From a virus (Duplodnaviria; Heunggongvirae; Uroviricota; Caudoviricetes): 33,994 nucleotides of DNA. The stretch lies in IMG/VR virus record IMGVR_UViG_2778261668_000001; one strand, written 5' to 3'. Position numbers and translations under genes: made by a program. Each line of letters begins with the position of its first letter. Positions within the stretch are counted from its first letter, which is position 1. Positions 17,849 through 22,026 of this stretch are shown in pieces. The notes beneath the pieces are model-generated. The model searched no databases. It worked only from the letters and a program-made list of their open reading frames with translations, and was not told where the DNA came from.

Positions 17849-18061
17849 TCAAAGTGCCACTACATGAACAGCCGCGGGGCCTTTAGGTCCGTTCTCAATA
17901 CCAAATTCGACTTGCTGATTCTCAGTTAACGTTTTGAAATCGTTGCTCTGAATAGCTGAGAAATGGACAAACACATCTTTGCTACCATCTTTCGGCGTGA
18001 TGAAACCAAAACCTTTTTCAGGGTTAAACCATTTCACTAAACCAGTCATTTTGTTAGACAT
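17849..18061 (-). CDS. cspI: Cold-shock protein, CspA family (CspI-like)
   Basis: [38 protein letters not shown] with RNP1/RNP2 motifs; long AT-rich leader at 18062-18424, typical of csp genes. Confidence 0.9.
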
Positions 18062-18424: not shown

Positions 18425-19452
<1,028 letters not shown>

Positions 19453-19565
19453 GGATATTTATCAGGATTTATCGGCTTCAAATCCCCGGATATGTTAAAT
19501 CTTACCTCACCAGTGATGGGCACTGGCGGGAGGAGGATGTCAATCTGATAAACACAGAGGTGACT

Positions 19566-19826
19566 ATGGATTACACAAATCTACCAAAACAAACTTTTGC
19601 TGATTTAATCGCACTCAGGCAAGCAGTCGTAGCTCTAATCAACTTGTTGCCGGAGAAGGAAAAGGAATTAGTTAAAGCGCTTCTTAACAGAACTGCCGCC
19701 GATTTTTCATCATATCCACTGACAGATGACCTTGCGGACCTTCCTGAATTAATTGCAGCGTCCGCCATTAAGCTTACTGAAGAGATTTACCCTCCTCAAA
19801 AATCTTCACAAAATTCCTGCGAGTAA
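19566..19826 (+). CDS. Hypothetical 86-aa protein antisense to the late operon
   Basis: SD AGAGG 5 nt before ATG at 19566 (ORF-track start at 19560 is GTG); helical-looking sequence; own terminator 20 nt downstream; 3' end overlaps the convergent 183-aa gene. Confidence 0.4.
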   Translation: MDYTNLPKQTFADLIALRQAVVALINLLPEKEKELVKALLNRTAADFSSYPLTDDLADLPELIAASAIKLTEEIYPPQKSSQNSCE

Positions 19827-20325
19827 CTTCAATGCAATAATCGTAAAACGCCGCAAACTGCTCATCGCGGCGTTTTTTTTCATCTTCAGAAGGGATCAGC
19901 ACCGACAATTTTTTATTCAGATCAGCGACGCTGCCCTCCAGTTTTTCAATGGGCGATTCAATATCATCTTTTTCTGACCGCAATGCCGTCGGTGGCGTCT
20001 TCAGAGAACCAGTAATTCTTCCCGGTAGCTTTCCTTTGTAGGTTATCCACACATTCTGCGCCTCTAAAATTATGGGGCGCTTTTCCGGCGACTGCTCATC
20101 CCCTACACATAACCCGGCAGCAACATCCAGGAATACCTGTCTGATTCTCATTCTGGCTGCTGCCTCATAAAACTCCAGCGCGGCACCTTCAACACGGTCC
20201 AGCGAGATGTCCAGGTCAAAAATTTCACCGTCAAAGCGTTTTTTGTCCCGTAAGGCTACAGTTACCGCCACTTTATTCTCAAAATTGCGGACTCCTTTCA
20301 CAACCAGTTCATAGTCTTGTGTCAT
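19774..20325 (-). CDS. Unknown 183-aa protein inside the lysis cassette, between holin and lysozyme
   Basis: Long ORF starting MTQDYELVVKG, ATG 4 nt after the holin stop; no recognisable catalytic or transmembrane motif; N-terminal part possibly YdfR-like (uncertain recall). Confidence 0.6.
   Translation of the reverse strand: MTQDYELVVKGVRNFENKVAVTVALRDKKRFDGEIFDLDISLDRVEGAALEFYEAAARMRIRQVFLDVAAGLCVGDEQSPEKRPIILEAQNVWITYKGKLPGRITGSLKTPPTALRSEKDDIESPIEKLEGSVADLNKKLSVLIPSEDEKKRRDEQFAAFYDYCIEVTRRNFVKIFEEGKSLQ
19846..19881 (+). terminator. Rho-independent terminator of the 86-aa gene, inside the 3' coding region of the convergent 183-aa gene
   Basis: ACGCCGC-(12 nt loop)-GCGGCGT followed by a T8 run. 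Confidence 0.65.
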
Positions 20326-20329
20326 TGGA

Positions 20330-20545
20330 TTACTCTCTTCTCGCAACCTTACGCCTGTCTTCTTTAATCTTGAAATAAAGGTTTGTCAGATACGTCAGCA
20401 GGCCAAAAACCAGACTACCCAGCACACCGATTGCAGCCCACTGTGACGGAGTTACTTTATCGAGTAACTGCAATGCCCAGAAACCAGCATTACCAGCCGA
20501 TGTGCCATAGGCGATACCTGTTGTTAACTTATCCATTGATTTCAT
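20330..20545 (-). CDS. Class II holin (phage 21 S-type pinholin) with dual-start motif
   Basis: [28 protein letters not shown]...[31 protein letters not shown] closely resembles S21 as recalled; two start Mets (M1, M4) typical of antiholin/holin pairs. Confidence 0.9.
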
Positions 20546-20763
20546 ATCCTCACCCCGATGTACACAGATGGTGCAATATGTTTGAAAAGATCGGAGTCTA
20601 TGGGTTAGTTTTTATAGCAAACGTTGTTCTCAACGGCGCTAAAAAACAGACACATTAAAAATGTGGGTAATTATTTTAAAAGAAAATCATATATTAAATA
20701 ATAATACGAGATATGTTTTCATATTTAGTGTACTGTATACGGCCATTTATACAGGAAAAGCCT

Positions 20764-20934
20764 ATGTCAGAACGTAAAGACTCAAAATCACGCCGTAATT
20801 ATCTCGTTAAATGTTCCTGCCCAAACTGCACCCAAGAGTCAGAACACAGTTTTTCAAGAGTACAAAAAGGTGCCCTTTTGATCTGCCCTCATTGCAACAA
20901 AGTATTCCAGACAAATCTTAAAGCTGTAGCTTGA
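20764..20934 (+). CDS. Small zinc-ribbon protein (56 aa; CxxC...CxxC), YnfU-like
   Basis: MSERKDSKSRRNYLVKCSCPNCTQESEHSFSRVQKGALLICPHCNKVF; SD AGGAAA. Name from recalled Qin annotation. Confidence 0.5.
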   Translation: MSERKDSKSRRNYLVKCSCPNCTQESEHSFSRVQKGALLICPHCNKVFQTNLKAVA

Positions 20935-20993: not shown

Positions 20994-21016
20994 AAAAAAC
21001 CCGCCTGAGCGGGTTT
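20994..21016 (-). terminator. Intrinsic terminator downstream of cspB (weaker in the plus direction)
   Basis: AAACCCGC-tcag-GCGGGTTT followed by TTTTTTA on the minus strand. Confidence 0.65.
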
Positions 21017-21297
21017 AATATTGTGGTACTTTTTGTGGGAGTCATCCACTTACGCACTTTGTTTTGCTATGCCAGCAGTTAGCTTCTGCTGTAAAACTAT
21101 TCATGCAGCAAACCTGCACTTCACCACAATGGTTAGCATACTTTTCCTGATTAAGTTATTGCCAAATATGCTGGCCATTGTTTCATGTATTGGACCTCCT
21201 TACTATTTATTAAAGAGATCCAATATTCACCACTCTGTCTGTATCTCCACTCAGGCATCAGCCTTCTTCGTTATCGTATACAGACAAACTATGAATT

Positions 21298-21513
21298 TTA
21301 ATCAGTAATTATGACATTTGCTGCTGCAGGACCTTTAGCACCACTCTCTACAGAGAAGGTAACCTTTTGACCTTCAAATAAGGTTCGAAAATTATCATTC
21401 TGAATCGCAGAAAAATGCACAAACACATCTTTACTACCATCAACAGGAGAAATAAAGCCGAAACCTTTATCAGCGTTAAACCATTTTACTAAACCAGTCA
21501 TTTTATTTGACAT
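21298..21513 (-). CDS. cspB: Cold-shock protein CspB-like
   Basis: [71 protein letters not shown]. Confidence 0.9.
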
Positions 21514-21813: not shown

Positions 21814-22026
21814 TTGTCCCGTAAAATGACAGGAATTGTCAAAACCTTTGACGGCAAAAGCGGCAAGGGTCTTATCACCCCATCCGATGGTCGTATCGAT
21901 GTCCAGCTTCATGTTTCAGCGCTCAATCTCCGCGATGCAGAAGAAATTACCACCGGATTACGCGTGGAATTTTGCCGGATAAATGGTCTGCGTGGCCCTT
22001 CAGCTGCCAATGTTTACCTTTCATGA
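21814..22026 (+). CDS. cspF: Cold-shock-like protein CspF/CspH-like
   Basis: [38 protein letters not shown]...[16 protein letters not shown]; divergent from cspB. Confidence 0.85.

Follow-up and report, generated by a model that had tools for sequence, protein, structure and literature searches.

A convergent gene pair with an embedded terminator hairpin in the lysis cassette of a Qin-type Escherichia coli prophage

In the lysis cassette of a Qin-type E. coli prophage, an 86-aa gene on the plus strand and the tail of a YdfR-family gene on the minus strand form one convergent module, newly described here, in which the terminator of the small gene lies within the coding sequence of the late gene. 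The locus is a conserved mobile gene pair and no new kind of lysis system. It is best explained, with moderate confidence for the explanation as a whole, as a mosaic of a YdfR-family late accessory gene on the minus strand and a bor-like antisense moron on the plus strand. The window, that is the whole stretch of 33,994 nucleotides that was analysed, is identical at this locus to CFT073, S88 and APEC O1.

The lysis cassette and its YdfR-family gene

The features of the locus, in window coordinates, are the following:

18425-18922, RzpQ, with an embedded lipoprotein-like ORF at 18475-18771
18919-19452, minus strand, rrrQ lysozyme, 177 aa (Pfam PF00959)
19453-19483, no strand assigned, conserved 30-nt block GGATATTTATCAGGATTTATCGG.., left edge of the module and lysozyme leader
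19468-19496, plus strand, weak sigma-70-like promoter candidate TTTATC-17 nt-TATGTT, of putative function
19566-19826, plus strand, 86-aa ORF, with GAGG at 19556-19559, 6 nt before the ATG
19774-20325, minus strand, 183-aa ORF of the YdfR family, its ATG following the holin TAA and the 4-nt spacer TCCA
19774-19887, minus strand, conserved module tail, last ~36 aa of the 183-aa protein, homologous to the C-terminal half of a free 73-aa Salmonella phage gene
19774-19989, minus strand, 71-aa C-terminal extension (aa 113-183 and stop), with two helices predicted by AF2 at 123-142 and 147-181
19845-19880, plus strand, stem-loop and T8, the 86-aa gene's intrinsic terminator, within codons 149-160 of the late-strand 183-aa gene
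19990-20106, minus strand, conserved YdfR core segment, aa 74-112, GLC.GDEQSPEKRPIILEAQNVWITYKGKLPGRITGSLKTPP, nearly invariant across the family (pLDDT < 50)
20107-20325, minus strand, YdfR N-terminal domain, aa 1-73, three strands and a helix, 82% identical to K-12 YdfR
20330-20545, minus strand, essQ (RefSeq name), P21-type class II holin, 71 aa (Pfam PF04971, E 7.3e-34)

Judged by its protein families, the cassette is of the phage-21 type with a predicted pinholin and SAR endolysin, since it holds a PF04971 holin, a PF00959 lysozyme and an Rz gene with an embedded Rz1. The 183-aa ORF begins 4 nt after the holin stop and precedes the lysozyme, exactly as the preliminary description of this DNA had it. 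The view taken there, that a gene in this slot departs from the canonical cassette, was not borne out: K-12 Qin also has a YdfR-family gene between holin and lysozyme, and the arrangement is not unusual in E. coli. Genes of this family reside in lambdoid prophage lysis cassettes of most E. coli genomes, including relatives of Stx phages, and cassette-related sequences were found in 5141 of the 5426 complete genomes. What is special to this locus is the 71-aa C-terminal extension together with the antisense gene. While the stop of ydfR overlaps the start of rrrQ in K-12, here a spacer of 321 nt, lying antisense to the 86-aa gene, separates them.

The 183-aa protein belongs to PF07041 (DUF1327), with a Pfam E-value of 1.6e-41 and 140.8 bits against a cut-off of 25, and its aa 1-112 correspond to profile positions 1-92 of 93. 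It also matches PHROG 2091, annotated as 'unknown function', over positions 1-183 of 183 (E 4.7e-112), and its gene occupies the place expected of a DUF1327 member, flanked by holin and endolysin in a lambdoid lysis cassette. A likeness of the N-terminus to YdfR of Qin, previously offered with reserve, is now firm, with 82% identity between aa 1-73 and the same residues of K-12 YdfR. AF2 places three strands in this domain (5-14, 18-27, 34-43), followed by a helix (50-73), at pLDDT 60-83. The following segment, aa 74-112, is missing from K-12 YdfR, and the short family members of 114-116 aa stop at its end. Likewise in agreement with the first reading, the 183-aa protein has no transmembrane segment and no match to a catalytic family. 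The C-termini differ across the family, with members ending at aa 114-116 or taking alternative forms of 103, 169-183, 211, 243, 268 and 296 aa, which shows the family to consist of an N-terminal docking domain with interchangeable C-terminal modules. In the window, the YdfR core (aa 1-112) is fused in frame to the 71-aa helical extension.

The first lead on the function of the family is RNase E binding, reported in a 2026 study (PMC13232886), besides which no literature on DUF1327 function was found. K-12 YdfR binds RNase E's catalytic domain (RNase E 1-597), for which its aa 1-72 suffice, and co-purifies with Rne 1-598 and with RNA, while its overproduction barely altered the transcriptome (PMC13232886). 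K-12 YdfR proved non-toxic on overproduction, with no growth defect. Carried over from K-12 YdfR on the 82% identity across the binding region, the same docking on RNase E may be proposed for the 183-aa protein.

In the PGAP annotation, the 183-aa gene is labelled a pseudogene, 'incomplete, missing C-terminus', and its C-terminal part is omitted. This call is wrong, and the annotation is hereby corrected: the gene is intact and conserved. The intact 183-aa form was found in most sampled IMG/VR loci and in isolated phages, and a 93% identical relative (P0002) stands for a cluster of 681 member sequences.

The antisense small gene, the tail and the hairpin

The opposite-strand 86-aa ORF with an SD motif, its overlap with the 183-aa gene and a terminator inside the coding sequence of the latter were all found as first described; the two ORFs are convergent and share exactly 53 nt (19774-19826). 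Comparative and modelling evidence argues that the 86-aa ORF is a real gene, because diverged homologues keep the SD and the start, indels are in frame, dN/dS is about 0.5 and a three-helix structure is predicted. The protein (WP_001306174.1) matches PHROG 2572, annotated as 'unknown function', over positions 1-86 of 86 (E 1.2e-53), and an exhaustive HMMER search returned the homologues P0140 (57% identity) and P0141 (41%). Two further candidates, P0139 and P0142, were set aside on account of repeat-protein resemblance and aberrant sequence. All three clusters, which share 41-57% identity, preserve the ORF with its SD and start, with an AAGGA motif in classes B and C where the window has GAGG. 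The indels seen are all in frame, dN/dS is below 1 in just two frames, the annotated one and an antisense frame with which it has the third codon positions in common, and variable sites number 7/2/10 at the three codon positions. The AF2 model is that of an acidic three-helix bundle (pLDDT 74.9).

The ORF is intact in 68 of the 69 IMG/VR loci with the start motif, and is also present in isolated phages, e.g., 2H10 and PhiR63_1. On the other hand, the start codon is changed from ATG to ACG in 7 of 80 IMG/VR loci, and in Salmonella one lineage deleted most of the small gene and another its 5′ end. Such losses indicate that the small gene is dispensable for prophage maintenance.

The late-strand tail occurs in two ways, fused to YdfR as in the window, or as the free 73-aa gene coupled to Rz. 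Tail and free-standing 73-aa protein are related at an hhalign E-value of 3.9e-5; homology over the whole 71-aa extension was rejected, the support being limited to the C-terminal ~28-36 aa. Extension and antisense gene occur together in the sampled variants. Substitutions within the overlap are synonymous in the late frame (3 synonymous, 0 nonsynonymous), and the same changes are nonsynonymous in the frame of the small gene. The N-terminal half of the 73-aa gene shows pN/pS of 0.14/0.44. Purifying selection acts on the tail, which moreover exists as a separate gene.

Searches of Pfam, NCBIfam, PADLOC and PDB sequences gave no match for the 86-aa protein and its homologues, nor for the 73-aa protein or the tail; one weak hit among these searches, to PARP1-BRCT (E 0.013), was taken as chance. 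The label 'DUF1823' on PhiR12 phage records was not reproduced by Pfam at E <= 0.1. Scanning the region against Rfam gave nothing near threshold, and an 18-bit match to GcvB was dismissed.

The hairpin begins 18 nt after the stop codon of the 86-aa gene, which thus has its own intrinsic terminator directly after it, as morons do. It is composed of AAAACGCCGC (19845-19854), a 12-nt loop and GCGGCGTTTT (19867-19876), forming a 10-bp stem followed by a T run up to 19880. The terminator had earlier been placed at 19846-19881; the hairpin itself stands, and its position shifts by 1 nt. The consensus scan did not list it solely due to its loop limit of 8 nt. A segment of 75 nt folds at -17 kcal/mol (z = -2.2 against shuffles). 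An 8-bp core is paired in all classes, with one compensatory change from G-C to A-U, while covariation statistics over the 6 distinct sequences were not significant. Only when read in the plus sense is the hairpin strong. One variant with a G.U wobble can pair in plus-sense RNA alone, and in the minus-sense fold the T run pairs with an A run, leaving no U tail. A bidirectional terminator was thus rejected for the window, where the tail remaining in the minus sense is ACGAUUAUU. In classes B and C, termination is uncertain because the U tract after the hairpin is poor there.

Upstream of the small gene, no promoter passed the threshold of the consensus scan, and the candidate TTTATC-N17-TATGTT matches 7 of 12 consensus positions. 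Its hexamers (TATGTT or TATTGT at the -10 side) and the 17 nt between them persist in all three classes, with variable sequence in between, and the element, a putative promoter, is present in 68 of 69 IMG/VR loci. The 30-nt block at the left edge of the module is also present upstream of the lysozyme in phages that lack the module (L007), and upstream of a Salmonella 93-aa gene, with no lysozyme following there.

Classes and variants of the module

The components of the module are a promoter-like block, the small gene, the stem-loop and, from the late-strand gene, its last ~36 codons. Three diverged classes of it are found in E. coli and Salmonella phages, all with a common layout of convergent ORFs, an overlap of 53 or 59 nt and a hairpin 18-30 nt after the plus-strand stop. 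Since the same layout recurs in three sequence classes whose small proteins are 41-57% identical, the arrangement is, on this comparison, more than chance. The module is present in 314 of the 5426 genomes. It is absent from K-12 Qin and from the 116-aa and 296-aa variants, with the same flanks, which is the presence/absence polymorphism of a moron. The family is narrow, as a species-level genome scan returned one locus.

In class C (Salmonella), the pair is placed after Rz, and the late partner is the free 73-aa gene, adjoining or overlapping the Rz stop. The class C cassettes have unrelated holins and endolysins of their own (PF16931/PF05449, GH19-like enzyme). Both placements of the late partner, within the lysis cassette or at its end, fit a lysis-related role as well. 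Two class C loci, L024 and L108, differ by one change in 222 nt of the ORF body and by 13-20% in the flanks. In L120-122, deletion has removed the candidate promoter and the 5′ end of the antisense gene but left the 73-aa gene intact. The preliminary description had reasoned that relatives with the ORF lost and the terminator conserved would speak for a pure RNA element. No such case was found: ORF and hairpin were lost jointly in one locus (L013), and in another (L014) the ORF was kept and the hairpin lost.

Proposed expression, alternatives and known systems

In regard to the mechanism, we propose an antisense moron of the bor-like kind that has its terminator within a late accessory gene, with the two strands expressed in mutually exclusive phases, a proposal for which the chances seem to us evenly balanced. 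The minus strand carries the YdfR-family accessory gene, translationally close-coupled to the pinholin, and the plus strand would carry an independently expressed moron with its own SD, a weak conserved promoter-like element and the stem-loop/T8 terminator. Because the 3′ end of the moron and its terminator share DNA with the last ~36 late codons, moron and late-gene tail travel and evolve together, as a single convergent module. In the lysogen and in early infection, with the late operon silent, the small gene would be transcribed and transcription would stop at the hairpin. After Q antitermination, late RNA polymerase would read through the hairpin in the opposite direction, giving YdfR-tail and lysozyme, and late transcription could silence the small gene by transcriptional interference and by RNA pairing across ~380 nt. 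From the hairpin stop on the one side and late read-through on the other, we infer that the 86-aa protein and the tail-bearing late protein would be made in opposite phases. The two are probably functional antagonists or partners in an accessory function related to host RNA (RNase E), outside the lysis machinery. An earlier suggestion of a late-expressed moron thus holds in part: it fits the 86-aa gene, although as an antisense and probably non-late moron, and does not fit the 183-aa gene.

Alternatively, the pair could be a cytoplasmic lysis-timing module, in which the YdfR-tail protein, or the free 73-aa protein, modulates holin or spanin, and in which its level, or the ratio of holin to endolysin, depends on the antisense gene or transcript. 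T4 RIII acts on the T holin from the cytoplasm, and the 73-aa protein, small and helical, is likewise predicted to be cytoplasmic. In every class, translational coupling ties the late partner to a lysis gene, 4 nt after the holin stop or at the Rz stop in Salmonella, and the module puts 321 nt between ydfR and lysozyme genes that overlap in K-12. However, the unrelated holins and endolysins of class C make a specific holin partner unlikely, the tail is missing from most related cassettes, searches gave no similarity to RIII or any antiholin, and the family's sole biochemical results concern RNase E and RNA. We regard a role in lysis timing, which the preliminary description had listed for the 183-aa gene, as possible but rather unlikely.

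A more specific and speculative possibility, for which we would give a small chance, is a hitherto unrecognised regulatory cassette. In it, the small acidic protein would be produced solely during silence of the late operon and would antagonise a tail of ~36 aa, for which different late proteins may serve as carriers, namely the RNase E-docking core of YdfR in E. coli and the free 73-aa protein in Salmonella; the shared hairpin and the antisense overlap would enforce the switch. If true, the phage would have here a means of gating, by infection phase, an activity directed at RNase E or at lysis.

An antisense-controlled toxin had also been considered, i.e., a toxin-antitoxin or abortive-infection pair in which the late-strand tail is toxic and the convergent gene neutralises it as protein or antisense RNA. 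Conservation, tight linkage, the 53-59-nt 3′ overlap and the shared hairpin suit such a pair, whose geometry resembles par/Fst and TxpA/RatA. Nevertheless, PADLOC gave no match, neither product is a hydrophobic or membrane peptide, the antisense partner is protein-coding, K-12 YdfR can be overproduced without growth defect, and the Salmonella loci L120-122 keep the 73-aa gene intact after deletion of the candidate antisense promoter and 5′ end, which renders the toxin reading improbable.

It is no less improbable, and if anything more so, that the 86-aa ORF is untranslated and the element acts as RNA only, as an antisense or 3′-derived small RNA ending at T8 or as a structured spacer of the late mRNA. 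T8 terminators are of the type that binds Hfq. The single change between the ORF bodies of L024 and L108, set against their diverged flanks, suits constraint at the nucleotide level, no promoter passes the scan and the ATG is lost in some loci. Against this stand the survival of ORF, SD and start at amino-acid identities of 41-57%, the in-frame indels, the frame-specific dN/dS, the confidently predicted helical bundle and the lack of an Rfam match. Finally, decay, with the 183-aa ORF as a truncated pseudogene of the 296-aa form and the antisense ORF as chance in debris, would agree with the PGAP label and with the sequence shared with the 296-aa form to ~aa 178, yet it is hardly credible given the many intact copies, the P0002 cluster, a tail under purifying selection that exists as a separate gene, and a sequence past the breakpoint unrelated to the 296-aa C-terminus.

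The proposed antisense moron can be compared with several known systems. par/Fst of pAD1, TxpA/RatA and BsrG/SR4 are type I toxin-antitoxin systems with convergent, 3′-overlapping transcripts and a shared terminator. The module resembles them in being prophage-resident and in having convergent units that overlap 3′ around one hairpin, but both partners are predicted to be soluble helical proteins with no small hydrophobic toxin among them, and the antisense partner codes for protein and is lost in natural variants with the late gene intact. Phage proteins acting on RNase E include T7 gp0.7, T4 Srd and phiKZ Dip. If the K-12 result transfers, the 183-aa protein would, by analogy, be another phage-encoded protein docking on RNase E, although no sequence or fold similarity to these three was found.

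K-12 Qin YdfR occupies the same slot between essQ and rrrQ, in the same type of prophage and with the same flanking genes. It differs in being 103 aa long, in diverging completely after aa 73 and in having no antisense gene, whereas the window protein adds aa 74-112 and the 71-aa extension. That one YdfR C-terminal module is inseparable from a real antisense gene defines the constructs for studying both the role of YdfR and the effect of antisense morons on late and lysis expression.

Morons are promoter-gene-terminator units in lambdoid late regions (the Hendrix/Juhala concept). As with lambda bor, which is found on the opposite strand after Rz in L007-L009, the 86-aa gene is a small accessory gene, opposed in strand to the late operon and located in or beside a lysis cassette, with its own terminator and with presence/absence polymorphism. 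Unlike bor, its product is predicted to be a cytoplasmic acidic helical protein and not a lipoprotein, and its promoter is only a weak candidate. Furthermore, its 3′ end and terminator fall within late-gene coding sequence, and moron and tail are inseparable.

The lysis cassette and its antisense gene

The window carries a Qin-type lambdoid prophage of E. coli whose flanks match K-12 Qin (cspI, rzpQ, rrrQ, essQ, ynfU, cspB, cspF, ydfT), and the 1.2 kb surrounding the gene pair are 100% identical in CFT073, S88, APEC O1 and many further strains. The preliminary description had placed a 183-aa gene 4 nt past the holin, opposed by an antisense 86-aa ORF with a terminator inside the gene. This layout is borne out by the coordinates, by the 53-nt overlap of the 86-aa ORF with the 3' end of the 183-aa ORF, and by a hairpin (19845-19880; 10-bp stem, 12-nt loop and T8 run) situated 18 nt beyond the 86-aa ORF and wholly inside the 183-aa coding sequence.

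Features of the lysis cassette in the window
20330-20545, minus strand: essQ holin (PF04971)
19774-20325, minus strand: 183-aa ORF, starting 4 nt past the holin stop
19566-19826, plus strand: 86-aa ORF, with GAGG 6 nt ahead of its ATG
Gap of 321 nt in the minus-strand cassette, between the 183-aa ORF and rrrQ
18919-19452, minus strand: rrrQ lysozyme (PF00959)
After rrrQ in cassette order, minus strand: rzpQ

Several further elements were observed in the surroundings. Cold-shock paralogues cspI, cspB and cspF lie on either side of the cassette (17849-18061, minus; 21298-21513, minus; 21814-22026, plus), and the cspB leader (21231-21400, minus) gives a below-threshold match to the Rfam cspA thermoregulator (34 bits vs a gathering score of 78); the K-12 ydfR cluster is cold-induced (PMC13232886). 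Between cspB and essQ, a strong terminator-like hairpin with 8 pairs and a T-rich tail (20997-21016, minus) follows cspB on the cassette strand, and ynfU, encoding a 56-aa zinc-ribbon protein (PF23499, E 5.5e-28), occupies the opposite strand (20764-20934, plus) with AT-rich promoter-like sites upstream at 20675-20705. Phages with a 296-aa YdfR form offer a further case of an antisense accessory gene bordering a lysis cassette, a DUF6650 gene located between Q and the holin on the opposite strand (L004 1297-2043).

The two proteins

The 183-aa protein belongs to the YdfR family (Pfam DUF1327, E 1.6e-41, aa 1-112), and a PHROG 2091 match spans its full length. The family combines a conserved core with interchangeable C-termini: the K-12 form has 103 aa, being 82% identical to the 183-aa protein over aa 1-73 and unrelated beyond, the commonest form has 114-116 aa and ends directly past ...SLKTPP, the extension seen in the window is present in forms of 169-183 and 211 aa, and forms of 243, 268 and 296 aa bear other C-terminal additions. 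Residues 74-112 (window 19990-20106), with the segment GLC.GDEQSPEKRPIILEAQNVWITYKGKLPGRITGSLKTPP, are almost invariant family-wide and lack a counterpart in K-12 YdfR; AlphaFold2 gives this segment a pLDDT < 50, and it may be a region that folds upon binding. The linker of the extension accepts large insertions: a class B 243-aa form (L115 4224-4955) has an in-frame 69-aa insert within the extension and a 211-aa form (L010 2501-3136) an in-frame 28-aa insert adjoining the hairpin. In one large E. coli genome, CP031353 (L019 2959-4172), an IS element encoding a 404-aa transposase (HTH_Tnp_1/rve) interrupts the YdfR-family gene, of which ORFs of 131 aa and 94 aa remain, and leaves the 86-aa gene intact.

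In the CFT073 copy (C_RS30310, window 19990-20325), PGAP annotates a pseudogene 'missing C-terminus', keeping aa 1-112 and leaving out aa 113-183. The isolated phages 2H10 (99.8% identity) and PhiR63_1 and the majority of sampled IMG/VR loci have the entire 183-aa form intact, and it is conserved across many genomes. The call is therefore very likely an annotation artefact, and a decayed 183-aa ORF an unlikely reading.

The sole functional study of YdfR that we found (Goepel et al., RNA Biol 2026; PMC13232886) reports two-hybrid interaction of the K-12 protein with RNase E 1-597 and RNase G, co-purification of Rne 1-598, sufficiency of residues 1-72 for the RNase E interaction, and pull-down of RNA; overproduction was without toxicity and altered few transcripts.

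The 86-aa ORF is a real gene. Its product (PHROG 2572; WP_001306174.1) had no match in Pfam, NCBIfam or PADLOC, and an exhaustive HMMER search, run against 1.84 billion cluster representatives, returned only three meaningful clusters: the window type (86 aa), P0140 (93 aa, 57% identity, E 3.9e-10) and P0141 (89 aa, 41% identity, E 1.9e-8). All three keep the open frame, Shine-Dalgarno site and start codon at the same place, and the length differences among variants amount to just 6 or 12 nt. Codon positions 1/2/3 hold 7/2/10 of the variable sites, pN/pS between two Salmonella variants is 0.128/0.258, and the ratio is below 1 only in the annotated frame and in one antisense frame sharing its third codon positions; that the ORF acts solely as RNA is unlikely. 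The protein is acidic (net charge about -5) and is modelled by AlphaFold2 as a three-helix bundle (pLDDT 75), with no match in fold searches. Of 5426 complete E. coli genomes, 314 carry the gene, as does one genome of a species-level collection. Eight stretches of a large repeat protein, P0139 (975 aa), match the small protein (E 1.6e-10) by way of a recurring motif, DL.DLAEAISAQQKAVNLTPEGH, so that helices 1-2 may resemble a TPR-like helical hairpin.

A mobile convergent module

The pair is coupled as a mobile convergent module, comprising a promoter-like block, the small gene, the stem-loop and the end of the late-strand gene, and falls into three classes.

Classes of the gene pair
Class A (window, E. 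coli): holin, YdfR core with 71-aa extension, convergent with the 86-aa gene, then lysozyme
Class B (L027, L113-119): same position; K-12-like YdfR with variable linker and related tail, convergent with an 89/93-aa gene
Class C (Salmonella prophages L024, L108-112, L123-124): free-standing 73-aa gene coupled to the Rz end, convergent with a 93-aa gene

In class C the holin and endolysin genes are unrelated and the pair sits directly ahead of the small terminase gene. The overlap is 53 or 59 nt in all classes, and the hairpin lies 18-30 nt beyond the small-gene stop. Profile comparison of the late-strand proteins backs homology of the last ~28-36 residues only (hhalign E 3.9e-5; EKKRRDEQFAAFY...RNFVK vs EQKRRDENEAALY...RNFQK), exactly the stretch whose DNA doubles as the 3' end and terminator of the small gene. 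Selection acts on this tail as protein, and it is no by-product: when two Salmonella loci (L024 vs L108) are compared across the overlap, the late frame has 3 synonymous changes and no nonsynonymous ones, and the small-gene frame no synonymous and 4 nonsynonymous ones. In the non-overlapping half of the 73-aa gene, pN/pS is 0.136/0.435.

The 8-bp core of the hairpin is paired in every class. In class B a G-C to A-U double change alters the encoded residues from RR..AA to RHH..GVA, without statistical significance given six distinct sequences, and in five IMG/VR loci a C-to-T change gives a G.U wobble in plus-sense RNA versus a C.A mismatch in minus sense. With its T8 tail, the window hairpin is a good terminator in the plus direction only; in the minus direction the A run pairs with the U run and uses it up. 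Classes B and C have a weaker U tract.

A consensus promoter scan upstream of the small gene found none. A TTTATC-N17-TATGTT element (19468-19496; TATTGT in class C), its position kept in all classes and its spacer variable, is present in 68 of 69 IMG/VR loci and is a candidate promoter and nothing more. The small-gene leader in the window (19503-19565) folds better than shuffled sequences (z = -2.2), and the leader of the Salmonella 93-aa gene (L024 1253-1300) can form two mutually exclusive 8-bp hairpins, CCGAACCA..TGGTTCGG and ATATGGTT..AACCATAT. The module edge away from the tail is marked by a 30-nt block (window 19453-19483) containing a direct repeat, ATTTATCAGG ATTTATCGG. It lies directly upstream of the lysozyme start in many phages, including some without the module, and in Salmonella upstream of the 93-aa gene with no lysozyme behind (L024 1212-1241); it could be a recombination boundary or a common regulatory site.

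Possible roles and comparison with known systems

Taken as a whole, the picture of an antisense moron paired with a tail-bearing late gene of RNase E/RNA-related accessory role seems to us evenly poised between right and wrong; its architectural part is well supported, its mechanistic part tentative, with the balance leaning against it. The small gene would behave like a bor-type antisense moron, transcribed while the late operon is off, its transcript ending at the hairpin. Read-through of terminators is established behaviour of lambdoid Q antitermination, and, if this applies here, Q-modified late transcription would cross the hairpin region in the opposite direction, silencing the small gene by interference and by pairing over ~380 nt, with the tail-bearing late protein made meanwhile. 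That one tail has been grafted repeatedly onto different carriers points to the tail, rather than YdfR as such, as the functional counterpart of the small protein. For the YdfR part, an accessory role related to RNase E or RNA is our best current guess, based on the K-12 data.

The main alternative, a cytoplasmic role in lysis timing, draws on the constant coupling to lysis genes, and we regard it as rather improbable. A toxin-antitoxin pair is unlikely, as the small gene has been lost naturally where the late gene persists. In L120-122 the 73-aa gene is intact and the 93-aa gene has lost its 5' end along with the promoter block; L120 at least has the appearance of a degraded prophage remnant. 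The small-gene start reads ACG for ATG in 7 of 80 IMG/VR loci (L066, L067, L077, L079, L086, L088, L091; position 3001 in those with the complete 3000-nt flank); otherwise the frame is undisturbed, and a GTG lying two codons upstream could act as start. The late gene is thus tolerated without the small gene, which argues against such a pair. Elsewhere, in a Salmonella locus (L013), a single deletion corresponding to window 19643-19875 took out the hairpin, the tail and the greater part of the small gene, and a metagenomic contig (L014) has the small gene (82 aa) and no hairpin.

Literature searches returned no account of a conserved convergent module, of its fused and free forms, or of a terminator embedded in a selected coding tail. 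This is no new kind of system, since both proteins fall into families already catalogued and sequenced strains commonly have the arrangement. The kind is known, a moron in a lysis cassette; what is new is the recognition of the convergent module, in fused and free forms, with its terminator inside a selected coding tail.
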